NCBI RefSeq assembly: GCF_044324785.1
Contig: NZ_CP172127.1
Strand: one strand, 5' to 3'
Source: Escherichia coli
Lineage (GTDB): Bacteria; Pseudomonadota; Gammaproteobacteria; Enterobacterales; Enterobacteriaceae
Length of the DNA: 64,000 nucleotides
The notes beneath the pieces are model-generated. The model was not told the origin of the DNA and ran no database searches. It saw nothing but the letters and a program-made list of their open reading frames with translations. The number at the start of each line of letters is the position of its first letter. Within the stretch, counting starts at the first letter, position 1. The translations under genes were made by a program, and so were the position numbers. Below, one piece after another: positions 2,508 through 59,435 of the stretch.

Positions 2508-3880
2508 CCTTGTGGGTCCTTACGCGTAATATTGACCGGAAGCCAGAGGGTGAACGTTGCGCCTTTTCCCTCCTGGCTTGCGACCTGAATTGTACCACCG
2601 TGTTGTTCAACAATATTATGCACGACCGCCAGCCCCAGTCCGGTACCTTCGGCTTTGGTGGTGAAGTACGGGGTGAAGATGGCTTCAAGCTGATCTGCCG
2701 CAATTCCCTTACCGCTGTCGGTAACGCTGATTTTCACGCCCGCGCCGCTTTCGCTGGCCGTCACGCTAATCACGCCATGCTGACCAATCGCCTGAATAGC
2801 ATTGAGATAGAGATTCAACAGGACCTGAGTCAGCCTGTCCGGATCGGCCTGAATTTCCGGTAATGTGTCGTTGGCGGTAAAGCGTAACTGGATCTCCCGG
2901 CTGTTTGCATCCTGGCTTACCAGCTGTAATGAGTGGTTAATCAGCGTGTTGAGATCCACCGCCTGCAAAGCCAGATGCGTTGGCTTGACCAGTTCCAGCA
3001 ACTCGCTTACCACGCGGTTTAAACGGTCGGCTTCTTTCGCCATCACCTGCGCCAGTTGATGCGCTTCTCCCCCTGCTGGCGCACGTTCGGCAAAGTATTT
3101 CGCCAGCCCTTTAATCGAGGAAAGTGGGTTACGGATTTCGTGGGCGACGCCTGCCGCAAGATGCCCCAGTGCCACCAGCTTCTCTTTGCGCTTCATTTCA
3201 TCCTGCAATAGCTGCCGCGAGCGCAGATATCGGCGATACCAGAAGAATGACAACACGCTTGCCAGCAAGACCGTCGCCAGAGCGAAGAGGATAATCAGGG
3301 TATTTCTCTGCTCACGATCCTCAGCACTCACAATGTTACTGGCGTCGAAAGCGATAAAAATTGCTTGTGGTGTCGCGGCATACTGCTGCATATGGCGCAT
3401 CCGGTGCATTCCAGCAGCAAACATCGGTTGAAACTGGCGATAAATTTCCAGAACAGGCTCGCCGTCTGCGCTATCGATCCGCCGCCACGCTTCTTCATCT
3501 CCCGGATGTAACTGCTGCATTTTCTGCGGGGAATAAAGCTGTTTTCCCACCATGCCGGAGTTGCTATGCATCACGATTGTTCCTTGTTCATCCGTGACCG
3601 CAAACCAACGTACACCAGGCTGCCCGGCCATTTCTTCCAGTAATGCCTGCTGCTGCGCATGATGCATGCGCATCCCCATGCCGACGCGCGAGCCGGATTC
3701 GAGAGCACGGATAAGTACACTGCCTTTTTCCAGCTGCGTTTGTCTGGCGGCGGCAGTCTCGCGCCCATAATCGCGAATCACTGTCACCGCAAACAGCCCC
3801 ACCAGCCCAACAATGACCACGGGGAGGATCGCGCTTAACCATTTAGCTAAGGAATCTTTAGAACGTTGCATAAAACGCAT
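2504..3880 (-). CDS. zraS: sensor histidine kinase of ZraSR system
   Basis: 458 aa; two TM segments, H-box (HEIRNPL) and HATPase motifs; operon with zraR. Confidence 0.9.
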   Translation of the reverse strand: MRFMQRSKDSLAKWLSAILPVVIVGLVGLFAVTVIRDYGRETAAARQTQLEKGSVLIRALESGSRVGMGMRMHHAQQQALLEEMAGQPGVRWFAVTDEQGTIVMHSNSGMVGKQLYSPQKMQQLHPGDEEAWRRIDSADGEPVLEIYRQFQPMFAAGMHRMRHMQQYAATPQAIFIAFDASNIVSAEDREQRNTLIILFALATVLLASVLSFFWYRRYLRSRQLLQDEMKRKEKLVALGHLAAGVAHEIRNPLSSIKGLAKYFAERAPAGGEAHQLAQVMAKEADRLNRVVSELLELVKPTHLALQAVDLNTLINHSLQLVSQDANSREIQLRFTANDTLPEIQADPDRLTQVLLNLYLNAIQAIGQHGVISVTASESGAGVKISVTDSGKGIAADQLEAIFTPYFTTKAEGTGLGLAVVHNIVEQHGGTIQVASQEGKGATFTLWLPVNITRKDPQG

Positions 3881-48897: not shown

Positions 48898-48952
48898 GGT
48901 GATGCTGCCAACTTACTGATTTAGTGTATGATGGTGTTTTTGAGGTGCTCCA

Positions 48953-49228
48953 GTGGCTTCTGTTTCTATCAGCTGTCCCTCCTGTTCAGCTACTGACGGG
49001 GTGGTGCGTAACGGCAAAAGCACCGCCGGACATCAGCGCTATCTCTGCTCTCACTGCCGTAAAACATGGCAACTGCAGTTCACTTACACCGCTTCTCAAC
49101 CCGGTACGCACCAGAAAATCATTGATATGGCCATGAATGGCGTTGGATGCCGGGCAACTGCCCGCATTATGGGCGTTGGCCTCAACACGATTTTACGTCA
49201 CTTAAAAAACTCAGGCCGCAGTCGGTAA
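48953..49228 (+). CDS. insA: IS1 InsA
   Basis: 91 aa [43 protein letters not shown]... zinc-finger/HTH protein. Confidence 0.95.
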
Positions 49229-49650
49229 CCTCGCGCATACAGCCGGGCAGTGACGTCATCGTCTGCGCGGAAATGGACGAACAGTGGGGCTATGTCGGGG
49301 CTAAATCGCGCCAGCGCTGGCTGTTTTACGCGTATGACAGTCTCCGGAAGACGGTTGTTGCGCACGTATTCGGTGAACGCACTATGGCGACGCTGGGGCG
49401 TCTTATGAGCCTGCTGTCACCCTTTGACGTGGTGATATGGATGACGGATGGCTGGCCGCTGTATGAATCCCGCCTGAAGGGAAAGCTGCACGTAATCAGC
49501 AAGCGATATACGCAGCGAATTGAGCGGCATAACCTGAATCTGAGGCAGCACCTGGCACGGCTGGGACGGAAGTCGCTGTCGTTTTCAAAATCGGTGGAGC
49601 TGCATGACAAAGTCATCGGGCATTATCTGAACATAAAACACTATCAATAA
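49147..49650 (+). CDS. insB: IS1 InsB frame (expressed as InsAB' transposase by -1 frameshift)
   Basis: 167 aa ORF overlapping insA 3' end; A6C slippery motif TTAAAAAACTC at about 49198. Confidence 0.93.
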
Positions 49651-49665
49651 GTTGGAGTCATTACC

Positions 49666-49674: not shown

Positions 49675-50269
49675 TTTATAAAAGAATTGCCAGATATCTT
49701 CGATACGGCTGGCATCGCGGCCAATTAATTGTGGACAAAGATGATCTTTCAGATAAGAAGCGACCGACAATTCGCGCCCATTTAACGTGGCATCTCCTAA
49801 TCCACAAAGTCCGCTTTCAGTGGTTATTTTAAGCGTAACGAAATTACGTCCTGGGCAAGTAACAAAAACATCTGCAGCAATAATTTTCATTATTGCAATC
49901 TCCTGTGTTGTAAATAGACGCTTCAAACTTAATTTTACGCCTACTACCATACAAGAGAGAAAGAGCGATTATTCAACCGTGATCACATTAAAAACAAAAA
50001 TTCCCACCGAGGAACAAGAATATCCTCAAATTTCATCCACACTATTAATTACTATTGTTAAAACAACACGTTAAATAATCACATAACAAATTCCTCTAAG
50101 GAAGAGAGTCATAACAATAACAAATGATAATCATATTTTACTTAATTCAATACGTATCGATATGTTTATTTTAAAAAGATTTTTCGGAATGAGAGATGAA
50201 AAGAAGATACACAAACAGGAAGAAATACGATTAATATTGGTCGCGGTAAGGGTAGCCGTTCCTCCCTTC

Positions 50270-50376
50270 CGCAACCCATTAACCCTTGAAGTCACAGTCT
50301 ATTTCAGGCATTTCTCAACTCAAAATAACGAAGGCCAATGTGAACTTTGTGGCTCTCCAGGATCCGCTTTGTTTTC
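50270..50376 (+). ncRNA. degenerate oxyS-like sequence (pseudo-oxyS, 3' two-thirds incl. terminator hairpin)
   Basis: AACCCTTGAAGTCAC...TTTCTCAACTC.AAATAAC.AAGGCCAATGTGAACTTTGTGGCTCTCCAGGATCCGCTTTGTTTT aligns to oxyS 46410..46509 at roughly 80 percent identity. Confidence 0.7.
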
Positions 50377-50378
50377 CA

Positions 50379-57367: not shown

Positions 57368-57390
57368 CGTAATTTCCTTAAGAAATAGTT

Positions 57391-57430
57391 CAGGTGTCAG
57401 GAAAACTCGATATAATATCGACCTGACTAT
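57391..57430. promoter_or_regulatory. palindromic candidate operator/promoter upstream of ABC operon
   Basis: Perfect 15-bp palindrome TCGATATAATATCGA flanked by GTCAGG / CCTGAC half-sites, 30-70 bp upstream of SBP start; contains TATAAT. Confidence 0.4.
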
Positions 57431-57489
57431 TTATATAATTTATAATCCCTTAGGCATTGATTAATAATTTAGACAATAAATAATGCCTA

Positions 57490-58299
57490 TTATTTATCAA
57501 CCTCCACAATGTTTAATTGTGGAAATTGTGTTCGATACCGAGTATCTGTACAAACATTAGTCACCAGAATATCGATTTCATCCAGCGTGCATATTTTACT
57601 AAATGCATACTGTTCAAACTTACTGGAGTCGACCAGCAATATTTTTTGTCCTGACACCTGAAGCATCACCTGTTTAAGTCTGGCATTAATTTCACTGCCA
57701 TCGCGGACACCATTCCCCAGATTCAACCCCTGGCATGAAAAGAAAAAACTGTTGATTTGAAAATTTCGGATCGCCCCCTCTGCAACCGGGCCATGAAAAT
57801 CATCATGTCGCTCAGAATACTCACCACCGATACCAATAATTCGAACTCGATCACGGCAAGCCAACGCCTGAATTATCCGTAATGAATTTGTAACTACAGT
57901 AACATCTATATCGGGAATTTGACGAGCTAAAAACCAACAAGTACTACTGTTATCCATTAAAATACAATCACCAGGGTGAATAAATTGCAATGCGGCCTTC
58001 GCAATTCTGGCTTTTATATCAGGATTTTCTTCAGTCCGTTTACGGAATGATTCCGCACGATCGATACTATTATCTTGCCACGCATTATCGGCGAGCATAA
58101 CCGGAGCGCTATCAGATGAATCCAGAGCGACCGCGCCACCAAAGCTACGGATTAACTTTTTGTTGCGCTCCAGTACCGTTAAATCCCGACGAATTGTCTC
58201 AGGAGACGCTTTAAATAATCGTGATAATTCTGTTACCTGTACAGCACCTTGTTTTTGTACATGTGCGCATATCATTTTATGGCGCTCTGCCTGCAACAT
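57490..58299 (-). CDS. DeoR-family transcriptional regulator (sugar-phosphate sensing type)
   Basis: 269 aa; N-terminal HTH (VTELSRLFKASPETIRRDLTVLE) and C-terminal DeoR-C sugar-phosphate binding domain. Confidence 0.85.
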   Translation of the reverse strand: MLQAERHKMICAHVQKQGAVQVTELSRLFKASPETIRRDLTVLERNKKLIRSFGGAVALDSSDSAPVMLADNAWQDNSIDRAESFRKRTEENPDIKARIAKAALQFIHPGDCILMDNSSTCWFLARQIPDIDVTVVTNSLRIIQALACRDRVRIIGIGGEYSERHDDFHGPVAEGAIRNFQINSFFFSCQGLNLGNGVRDGSEINARLKQVMLQVSGQKILLVDSSKFEQYAFSKICTLDEIDILVTNVCTDTRYRTQFPQLNIVEVDK

Positions 58300-58752
58300 A
58301 GTATCGGTCCGTTATTATCAAATTAGCATGCTTATATAATTAACTGTTCCCTCATAAAATAAAGTGATAGGAATCAAGATTCATTTTATAAATATAATCG
58401 CAAACAGAAATGGTGATCTTTACCACAAATTAAATTGAGAATATTCTACTATTGGACATTTTTTTGAGATATACGTCACTAAATAAGCTTTATTCTGTCA
58501 CCTGACGAAAAATTTAAATGCAAAAACAAAAATAATCGGGCATAGCAATCTCTTCCATTCATGACCGAATACGCCCGAATAAAACCGTTTACGCCCACTT
58601 ACCCTCTTTCATTGCCTTCTTACATGCCTTGAATATTTTACATTTCTTATATTCAGCGTAATTTAGGCAACATAATTTACGAGCAAAAATAGCCAAAACC
58701 CAAAAGTTAAAGTTTATTTATATAATACATACAGATTATCGTGGAGTTAAAA

Positions 58753-59435
58753 ATGGATACGCTAAAGGAAAAAGTTCTTGCTGCGAATTTATCACTACCC
58801 CTTCATCAGTTAGTGACGTTTACCTGGGGAAATGTTAGCGGTATTGATCGCGAAAAAGGTGTCATGGTTATTAAACCTTCTGGGGTCGAATACAGCCAAA
58901 TGGGCAGGTGGTAGTGGATTTACAAAGTGGTGAAGTTATTGATGGACACAGGAAACCCTCTTCAGACACAGATACTCATCTGGCGCTATACCGTGCTTTC
59001 CCGGATATTGGAGGTATCGTTCATACCCATTCCCGACACGCCACAATATGGGCTCAGGCCGGAAAAGATCTCACGGCCTTTGGGACAACCCATGCAGATT
59101 ATTTCTACGGCACTATCCCCTGTACACGCCCCATGAAGGATGACGAAATTAATGGACAATATGAATATGAAACGGGGCGAGTGATTATTGAAACGTTCAG
59201 GCAACGAGAAATATCTCCCGCTGACATTCCGGCTGTTTTAGTAAACAGTCATGGCCCCTTTGCCTGGGGAACTGATCCCGCGAACGCCGTGCATAACGCC
59301 GTTGTACTTGAAGAAATCGCCTATATGAATCTCTTTACACAACAGCTACACCCCCATCTTACGGCTATTCAACAGCCTCTACTGGATAAGCATTTTTTAC
59401 GCAAGCATGGTGCCAATGCTTATTACGGGCAGTAA
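58753..59435 (+). pseudogene. L-ribulose-5-phosphate 4-epimerase (AraD/SgbE/UlaF class II aldolase family), apparent frameshift
   Basis: Frame 1 [51 protein letters not shown] then stop at 58910..58912; continues in another frame [21 protein letters not shown]...[14 protein letters not shown]...[18 protein letters not shown]. Confidence 0.8.

Follow-up and report, generated by a model that had tools for sequence, protein, structure and literature searches.

The 453-bp spacer at 58300-58752 of the 64,000-nucleotide stretch of Escherichia coli DNA analysed here (the window) appears, with a probability of about 0.9 as judged from the sequence, to be a protein-binding control region that carries the predicted sites listed in Table 1 and contains no embedded gene. 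It is most likely a fuc-like control region for CRP and a paralogue of FucR, situated between two divergent promoters, which is ordinary in kind but unusually rigid in its layout. A preliminary description of this DNA had presumed that the region holds both divergent promoters together with regulator sites, and this is supported by CRP-like sites, an array of FucR-type half-sites, two promoter-like blocks and the fixed spacing of these elements.

The spacer, its neighbours and its orthologues

The spacer is part of an accessory island of ~13 kb that lies between oxyR and argH in an Escherichia-type chromosome. The island contains genes for an MFS transporter, manD, an FGGY kinase, an L-ribulose-5-P 3-epimerase, a four-gene sugar ABC transporter, a DeoR-family regulator and an araD-like 4-epimerase, and these enzymes indicate an L-xylulose/L-ribulose-5-P route rather than one for fucose. 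The island is chromosomal, is present in single copy and is carried by 146 of 5426 complete E. coli genomes (about 2.7%). Searches by protein accession and by pathway found no literature on it. The long, AT-rich divergent gap between the DeoR-type regulator gene and the 4-epimerase gene that had been reported is borne out, with a G+C content of 0.305 for the spacer compared with 0.447 for the island and 0.511 for the whole window. It is also true that the gap lacks any ORF of 60 aa or more, the longest ORF fully within it having 39 aa (58479-58598, - strand), and the long A/T tracts mentioned earlier could be located as one T7 and four A5 runs. A remote-similarity search showed that the spacer region occurs once in E. 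coli DNA and is no repeat element.

The regulator, the start codon of which is read as CAT at 58297-58299 on the + strand, contains the HTH_DeoR (PF08220, E 3.7e-15) and DeoRC (PF00455, E 7.1e-50) domains. Its best NCBIfam match is FucR (161.7 bits), followed by SrlR (158.9 bits) and AgaR (153.8 bits), and it falls below the cutoff of 259 bits for the FucR equivalog NF007720. It is 33% identical to K-12 FucR (E 4e-46), and the SxETIRRDL helix is common to both. By these sequence comparisons the regulator is a FucR paralogue and not FucR itself. The intact allele of the araD-like gene scores 429.9 bits against an NCBIfam cutoff of 386.

In this strain the island seems to have decayed. Relative to the comparison sequence L001, 10 bp are missing from the araD-like gene after 58906, and manD is interrupted by IS1 at 48898-49665, with a 9-bp target duplication. 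Within the spacer, a T to C change at 58423 affects the TCACA half of CRP-like site 2, which reads CCACA in the window and TCACA in three other E. coli sequences examined.

Table 1. Features of the spacer and its flanks (positions in the window; promoter elements and transcription starts are predicted).
Feature	Position	Strand	Remarks
DeoR/GlpR-family regulator gene, FucR paralogue	57490..58299	-	First gene of the regulator-ABC transporter-3-epimerase-kinase operon
Conserved CATG, predicted operon transcription start = A58329	58327..58330	-	Hardly varies among 17 sequences, each with 8-9 nt between it and the -10 marker
Predicted operon -10, AATTAT	58336..58341	-	Invariant A58336, T58340; 28 nt to CRP-like site 1 in 17/17
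CRP-like site 1, AGTGATAGGAATCAAG	58363..58378, centre 58370.5		-41.5 from predicted start 58329; GTGA and TCA(A/T)G (nearly) invariant in all genera
CRP-like site 2, GGTGATCTTTACCACA	58412..58427, centre 58419.5 (-90.5)		Spacing to site 1 is exactly 49 bp in all sequences
CRP-like site 3, TGAGATATACGTCACT	58465..58480, centre 58472.5 (-143.5)		53 bp from site 2 across the genera compared; marker distance constant +/-1
A/T runs	T7 at 58459; A5 at 58508, 58522, 58528, 58685		
Inverted FucR-type unit ATCGGGCATA (reverse complement TATGCCCGAT)	58535..58544	-	15.2 bits, top unit in the 64-kb window
Four direct 10-bp units CATGACCGAA, TACGCCCGAA, TAAAACCGTT, TACGCCCACT	58560..58599	+	Units 1 and 2 strong, 3 and 4 weak; holds both ACGCCC copies
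E. coli-specific insertion, ~11 bp	58620..58632 (approximate limits)		Holds the first TTACAT and a degenerate unit-like CATGCCTTGAAT
-35-like TTTACA, predicted araD promoter	58637..58642	+	TTT 58636-58638 invariant; 16 bp upstream of the -10-like hexamer
-10-like TAATTT(A), predicted araD promoter (block E)	58659..58665	+	T58659, A58660, T58664 invariant; A58665 in at least 90%
araD-like L-ribulose-5-phosphate 4-epimerase gene with Shine-Dalgarno	58743..59435	+	GGAG 58743-58746, ATG 58753; frameshifted in this window
Conserved block (i), 17 spacers	CATG 58327-58330 and invariant A58336, T58340		
Conserved block (ii), 17 spacers	Centres 58370.5, 58419.5, 58472.5		Three (T)GTGA-N6-TCA(C/A)
Conserved block (iii), 17 spacers	58535-58544, then 58560-58599		ATCGGGCATA, then 10-bp units
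Conserved block (iv), 17 spacers	TTT 58636-58638, T58659, A58660, T58664 (all invariant)		Block E

A comparative sample was obtained by scanning the regulator protein against one genome per species. This yielded 19 loci from seven other genera (Atlantibacter, Citrobacter, Yersinia, Erwinia, Pantoea, Affinibrenneria and Providencia) with regulators of 63-85% identity. All 19 retain the arrangement araD <- spacer -> regulator -> SBP, with spacers of 423-631 bp. The alignment with orthologous islands that had been put forward as a check for conserved blocks did reveal them: 17 aligned spacers show short conserved blocks with variable sequence between (Table 1). The distances between markers in this alignment, from the operon -10 to CRP-like sites 1, 2 and 3 and on to the inverted unit, are 28, 49, 64 +/- 1 and 60 +/- 1 in 17 of 17 sequences. 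Between the inverted and the direct units the spacing is either 28, 38 or 48 in the 17 sequences, with no intermediate values, and that from the array to block E is 52-55, except in E. coli, where it is 63 owing to an 11-bp insertion. The outer segments differ in length between sequences: CATG and the regulator ATG are 21 to 77 nt apart, and 81 to 268 nt separate block E from the araD ATG. Hence, the core of ~340 bp has undergone indels of 10, 11 or 20 bp only, and larger irregular changes are confined to the two predicted 5' UTRs.

Free outer segments around a core that tolerates indels of whole helical turns only is the pattern expected of 5' UTRs flanking a protein-DNA scaffold. With half-sites kept, the sequence between them free and distances fixed, the blocks look like the signature of DNA-binding sites rather than of a transcript, and judged by the alignment the pattern is the opposite of that expected from a transcript-encoded function. 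The regulator-SBP spacer contains no block conserved across genera other than the Shine-Dalgarno sequence, and the 453-bp spacer is therefore probably the main control region.

Candidate binding sites and promoters

The three candidate sites on the operon side can be classed as CRP-like by their match to TGTGA-N6-TCACA, from which sites 1, 2 and 3 of the window deviate at 3, 2 and 2 positions, respectively. Their orthologues have 1-3 mismatches (1-2 for site 2) and are frequently just one position off, and site 3 reads TGTGAT-N4-ATCAC in most of them. CRP-like sites with at most two mismatches occur 27 times in 20 spacers, compared with 4.5 expected from shuffled sequences. A CytR-like protein binding between the CRP sites was considered and ruled out, as no conserved sequence lies between them.

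A conserved C-A at 58330/58329, which is the predicted transcription start, lies 41.5 bp from the centre of site 1, and between the two is an nAnnAT hexamer at -12 to -7. We infer that the regulator operon is transcribed from a class II CRP promoter (for the geometry see PMC12632272) that starts near 58329, with CRP sites at -41.5, -90.5 and -143.5. The bases of the -10 element also read TATAAT at 58335-58340 on the + strand, and the hexamer alone is strand-ambiguous. However, the - strand reading is favoured because the register of CRP site, -10 and CA fits and because all length variation lies downstream of CATG. The ATG within CATG was rejected as an upstream start codon, since in E. coli a stop follows after three codons and elsewhere the stretch from it to the true start is not consistently divisible by three.

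A sigma-70 matrix scan projected onto the alignment decided the strand of neither -10 block, the invariant A-N3-T bases being symmetric, and strands were assigned by geometry and by the placement of indels. In the same scan both predicted promoters are weak in every genus, as expected of activator-dependent promoters. A consensus promoter scan of the spacer gave one promoter-like site against 3.0 expected and was uninformative.

We infer that the araD promoter is block E, with a -35 at 58637-42, a -10 at 58659-64 and a start near 58671. This block has the sequence TTTACA-16-TAATTT in the E. coli clade and a weaker form outside it. Its TAnnnTA is symmetric and scores similarly on both strands, so that a leftward - strand -10 is possible. 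Conservation of the aligned -35 TTT favours the rightward reading, as does the confinement of all large length variation to the araD side. In Yersinia and Affinibrenneria 150-190 extra nt separate block E from araD, an amount that would be tolerable in a UTR but not in a promoter-to-regulator spacer. In the E. coli clade the true araD promoter could instead be a perfect TATAAT closer to the araD ATG, at 58721-58726.

Between the CRP-like sites and block E is an array that comprises, depending on the genus, about one to three inverted and three or four direct units with the consensus TATG(A/C)CCGA(W)T. The 10-bp period is present in all genera, the distance between the inverted unit and CRP-like site 3 is fixed at 60 +/- 1, and Citrobacter and Providencia have a second inverted unit 10 bp upstream. 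Direct units 1 and 2 score 14.2 and 14.0 bits, and when the unit matrix is run over the 64-kb window three of the five best matches fall at 58534, 58559 and 58569. In the other loci the density of units is 6.1 per kb in spacers and 0.29 per kb outside, a 21-fold difference that is partly circular as the matrix was trained on spacers. No further conserved units were found at the promoters, upstream of the SBP gene or elsewhere in the island; TATGAGGGA at 58348-58356 was tried as one and is not conserved.

Read on the opposite strand, the unit core ATG(A/C)CCG gives CGG(T/G)CAT, the published core of the FucR motif, which places the units among FucR-type half-sites. In the experimentally derived FucR motif CGG and CA are the most conserved bases (Baumgart et al. 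2021, as quoted in PMC11011485), and mutation has shown that activation of fucAO by FucR requires the two sites ccgaaaaCGGtCAtt and ttaagagCGGtCAtt (PMC11011485). Both validated sites lie upstream of a CRP site in a fuc spacer with four CRP sites (PMC11011485), at positions that we computed from the K-12 sequence and the same paper to be -131 and -190. In the K-12 fucA-fucP spacer (546 bp) the core ATGACCG / CGGTCAT occurs five times, and the island-derived matrix finds 5 matches against 0.32 expected, including the validated OFucR2 and OFucR3. The unit TATGACCGAT also matches, at 8 of 10 positions, the sequence TATGTTCGAT read in the K-12 glpD promoter, which we take to be a GlpR operator half-site.

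The short direct repeats named in the preliminary description are present where it had placed them, but they differ in meaning. ACGCCC, noted twice at ~58570..58600, is found at 58571-58576 and 58591-58596, and both copies are part of a longer 13-nt repeat, ACCGAATACGCCC / ACCGTTTACGCCC, with 11 of 13 bases identical and 20 bp apart. The real period is 10 bp, as is evident when 58560-58599 is divided into its four units (Table 1). The first copy lies inside a unit kept across seven genera, and the second inside the degenerate fourth unit, which is variable even within E. coli (TATACCC in L024). TTACAT, noted twice at ~58620..58650, is found at 58620-58625 and 58638-58643 and is not a conserved repeat. 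Its first copy lies inside the 11-bp insertion seen only in E. coli, where the other genera are gapped over most or all columns (alignment ~415-425; 9-11 columns each), and its second copy overlaps the -35-like TTTACA. Hexamers that recur within 30 nt number 14 in the spacer compared with 6.2 +/- 3.3 in shuffles (about 2.4 sd above), and the two hexamer repeats alone are therefore weak evidence.

Alternative readings and mode of control

The region had also been described as long enough to host a small RNA or a small protein gene, and an independent gene of this kind might explain both its length and its conservation. Several ORFs of 10-39 aa are present, the symmetric block E could drive a leftward transcript through the array, and folding of the - strand over the array is slightly more stable than that of shuffles (z = -1.55; single-sequence folding otherwise gave z = +1.01, +0.90 and +0.39). 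An embedded gene is nonetheless very unlikely, as no conserved ORF, terminator, structure or Rfam match supports it. The 20 spacers compared contain 207 small ORFs of at least 12 aa, of which none is conserved between genera. The peptides that do recur (MTEYAR/MTDY type, 13-24 aa) stem from the ATG in the repeated unit and lack a Shine-Dalgarno sequence, such that no ORF with a ribosome-binding site is conserved in the orthologues as would be expected of a small protein gene. A small RNA gene would be recognized by its own promoter and terminator, by covarying structure or by a known family. The promoter/terminator scan found no terminator-like site in the spacer, and RNAalifold on the spacers gave -0.31 kcal/mol with three invariant pairs between operator units and zero covarying pairs. 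Rfam searches at permissive E-values returned nothing at the gathering score, the best matches, snoZ103 (24.2 bits, threshold 44) and STnc320 (22.5 bits), being at chance level and well short of the required scores. In addition, conservation is limited to the half-sites, and in the genomes listed the RefSeq annotation places no feature wholly inside the spacer.

It is also very unlikely that the spacer is AT-rich, horizontally acquired filler, for example a silencing region bound by H-NS, with no specific architecture and with hexamer repeats that arose by chance. Its G+C content (30.5% against 51% for the window), its several A/T runs, the accessory nature of the island and the modest excess of hexamer repeats over shuffles would all fit such an origin. 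However, the blocks are invariant and their spacing is exact over seven genera in which the flanking proteins are just 63-85% identical, and the unit motif matches validated FucR sites. As a sufficient explanation filler is already contradicted, on the alignment, by the conserved blocks and their fixed spacing, although H-NS binding could be superimposed on a control region.

We propose that the control region is shared by two divergent units, the araD-like gene on one side and the operon for the regulator, ABC transporter, L-ribulose-5-P 3-epimerase and FGGY kinase on the other. The regulator would bind the array when loaded with a phosphorylated intermediate, probably L-xylulose-5-P or a ketose phosphate like it, that the island kinase produces. 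Relative to the predicted araD start the array would occupy about -72 to -136, and relative to that of the operon -207 to -270; if araD transcription begins near 58671, the direct units fall at about -77 to -107 and the inverted one at about -131. From there the bound regulator would activate the two weak promoters, acting jointly with CRP at that of the operon, by helping CRP and RNA polymerase in the way proposed for FucR (PMC11011485). As the regulator is encoded by the first gene of the operon it would, like FucR, also activate its own synthesis.

Whether the regulator activates or represses is the more evenly balanced question, and activation is somewhat favoured on the basis of the predicted sites and the analogy with FucR. 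No unit overlaps either predicted promoter in a conserved fashion, and this, together with the weakness of the promoters, argues for activation. The family prior and the near-tie between the FucR, SrlR and AgaR scores argue against it, since most characterized DeoR/GlpR-family proteins are repressors that respond to phosphorylated intermediates (PMC12632272). The same sites could thus be served by a classical repressor that forms an oligomer on the phased array, is released by a sugar phosphate and shuts both promoters by looping, by spreading to the araD -35 or by blocking CRP upstream. In favour of this reading, the 8 of 10 match between the unit and the glpD half-site is accompanied by a more general resemblance, in that half-site arrays with a 10-bp phase are similar to tandem glp operators. 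Repression is a realistic but less probable mode of action. The conserved array is clear of the -35, -10 and +1 of both predicted promoters, and no conserved secondary operator was found at either of them. Furthermore, the activator FucR has an identical half-site core and its sites in fuc act from -131 and -190, and two weak promoters would be needless under control by repression only.

The fuc-like reading itself faces several difficulties. The predicted araD promoter has no CRP site nearby. The bases by which both -10 elements were assigned are symmetric A-N3-T invariants, the starts are predicted, the units are arranged differently from those of fuc (tandem at 10 bp with a divergent inverted copy, compared with convergent pairs ~29 bp apart), and the regulator, with FucR scoring barely above SrlR and AgaR, is under the FucR equivalog cutoff.

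A more far-reaching version, which we consider rather unlikely, is that three CRP dimers and the regulator oligomer form one phased, enhanceosome-like complex that co-activates promoters ~340 bp apart, with the island cross-wired to the fucose regulon of the host. The centres of the sites are spaced by 49, 53 and ~67 bp and have been shifted by indels of whole helical turns only in at least seven genera, and the cross-wiring is suggested by a unit half-site core identical to that of FucR. With such cross-wiring, FucR might induce the island, or fuc expression might be modulated by the regulator of the island.

The analysis converts an unannotated 453-bp gap into a testable regulatory map, for an island with orthologous loci in several other enterobacterial genera. 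The map provides a DNA motif and a probable mode of action for an uncharacterized FucR paralogue. It also predicts that the island is under catabolite control and draws attention to cross-talk with the fucose regulon as a possibility. It reveals no new kind of element, its notable traits being three exactly spaced CRP-like sites and a phased half-site array. A layout that is rigid and helically phased to this degree offers a clean natural case for the limits that distance and phase place on co-operation between CRP and a specific regulator.

Comparison with known systems

The operators of GlpR (glpD, glpFK, glpTQ-glpACB) belong to the same DeoR/GlpR family of regulators and are similar in sequence, as seen from TATGTTCGAT and TATGACCGAT. 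The glp systems have multiple half-sites in helical phase, and their operators are palindromic 20-mers that overlap promoters and mediate repression. In contrast, the island units are direct repeats with a divergent copy and lie outside both predicted promoters. The tandem-CRP promoters deoP2, cdd and nupG (class III, CytR-type) have a CRP site near -41 and a second one ~50 bp further upstream. The island sites at -41.5 and -90.5 are positioned similarly, but the island has a third CRP site 53 bp further on, lacks a conserved inter-CRP sequence for a CytR-like protein, and has the sites of its specific regulator beyond the third CRP site.

The MtnR/CRP-controlled DHAP-shunt island of extraintestinal E. 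coli, with a conserved, ORF-free upstream region of 799 bp, is likewise an accessory sugar island with a class II-type CRP site and an adjoining gene for a DeoR-family regulator (PMC12632272). MtnR, however, is a repressor with the motif CAAAT-N9-ATTTG, its suspected site overlaps a -10 element, and its locus is not divergent (PMC12632272).

Like the island, the K-12 fucAO-fucPIKUR system has a long spacer (546 bp, compared with 453 bp in the island), flanked on one side by a class II aldolase-family gene and on the other by a transporter/kinase operon in which a DeoR-family regulator is encoded. Both spacers contain several CRP or CRP-like sites and several sites with a CGG(T/G)CAT core well upstream of the promoters. 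In fuc the FucR sites and CRP are both required for activation, and FucR activates its own synthesis (PMC11011485). The island differs in that its regulator is only 33% identical to FucR, below the equivalog cutoff, and is encoded by the first rather than the last gene of the operon. The island also has a 10-bp tandem array with one or more inverted units where fuc has convergent pairs ~29 bp apart, its three CRP sites are held at fixed distances of 49 and 53 bp, and its enzymes suggest an L-xylulose/L-ribulose-5-P route.

Interrupted genes of the window

The araD-like gene for L-ribulose-5-phosphate 4-epimerase lacks 10 bp after position 58906 relative to intact E. coli alleles, and this deletion breaks it into two overlapping open reading frames (58741-58914 and 58908-59435). 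The window copy is a pseudogene. The araD leader is 150-190 nt longer in Yersinia massiliensis and Affinibrenneria salicis, the additional sequence lying between block E, the predicted araD promoter block, and the araD start.

The manD gene is interrupted by a 768-bp IS1 flanked by a 9-bp target duplication, GTAAGCACC, and the manD reading frame left over in the window is missing its first 82 residues. A similar manD::IS1 arrangement is present in E. coli strain 1916D18. Upstream of manD, a non-coding stretch of ∼490 bp separates this gene from the end of the kinase gene and is the second long one beside the 453-bp spacer that separates the DeoR-family regulator gene from araD.

Locations of the features (window coordinates unless a locus is named)
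Feature	Location	Strand	Remarks
araD-like gene	58753-59435
Extra araD-leader sequence	L007 (Y. massiliensis) about 3370-3640; L009 (A. salicis) about 3416-3660		alignment and marker-distance comparison
IS1 in manD	48898-49665
manD-upstream stretch	about 49890-50378; L001 3692-4179
Hairpin GTCAGG..TCGATAT/ATATCGA..CCTGAC	57396-57427		in regulator-SBP spacer 57368-57489
Coding-region FucR-type unit	L008 4413, L010 1262, L012 4416, L019 4416, L020 4413	-
E. coli counterpart of this unit	about 57880		degenerate
fucPIK-side CRP-like site	L022 2570-2590		K-12 fuc spacer

Substitutions within the spacer

Four spacer substitutions (58423, 58504, 58520 and 58676) are confined to the window when two main-type genomes serve as reference, and a further one at 58418 is shared with another E. 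coli locus, L024. The T-to-C change at 58423, which is absent from all three other E. coli sequences compared, turns TCACA into CCACA in one half of CRP-like site 2, the middle one of three in the spacer.

Elements outside the spacer and motif overlap

The hairpin between the regulator and SBP (ABC-transporter) genes is kept in E. coli, Atlantibacter and Citrobacter but not in the remaining genera; it may serve either as a stabiliser between cistrons or as a partial terminator. Within the regulator coding region, near codon 138, Erwinia, Pantoea and Providencia carry a FucR-type unit with a high score of 13.7-13.9 bits in the island-derived matrix; this unit may represent an internal site or a coincidence of the coding sequence.

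A CRP-like site on the fucPIK side of the K-12 fuc spacer, TGTGACCGCCGTCATA, also includes FucR-like half-site sequence (TGTGACCG, CGTCAT), and CRP and FucR motifs can therefore overlap. A similar sequence, TGTGACCGC, is present in Providencia rettgeri immediately upstream of block E.
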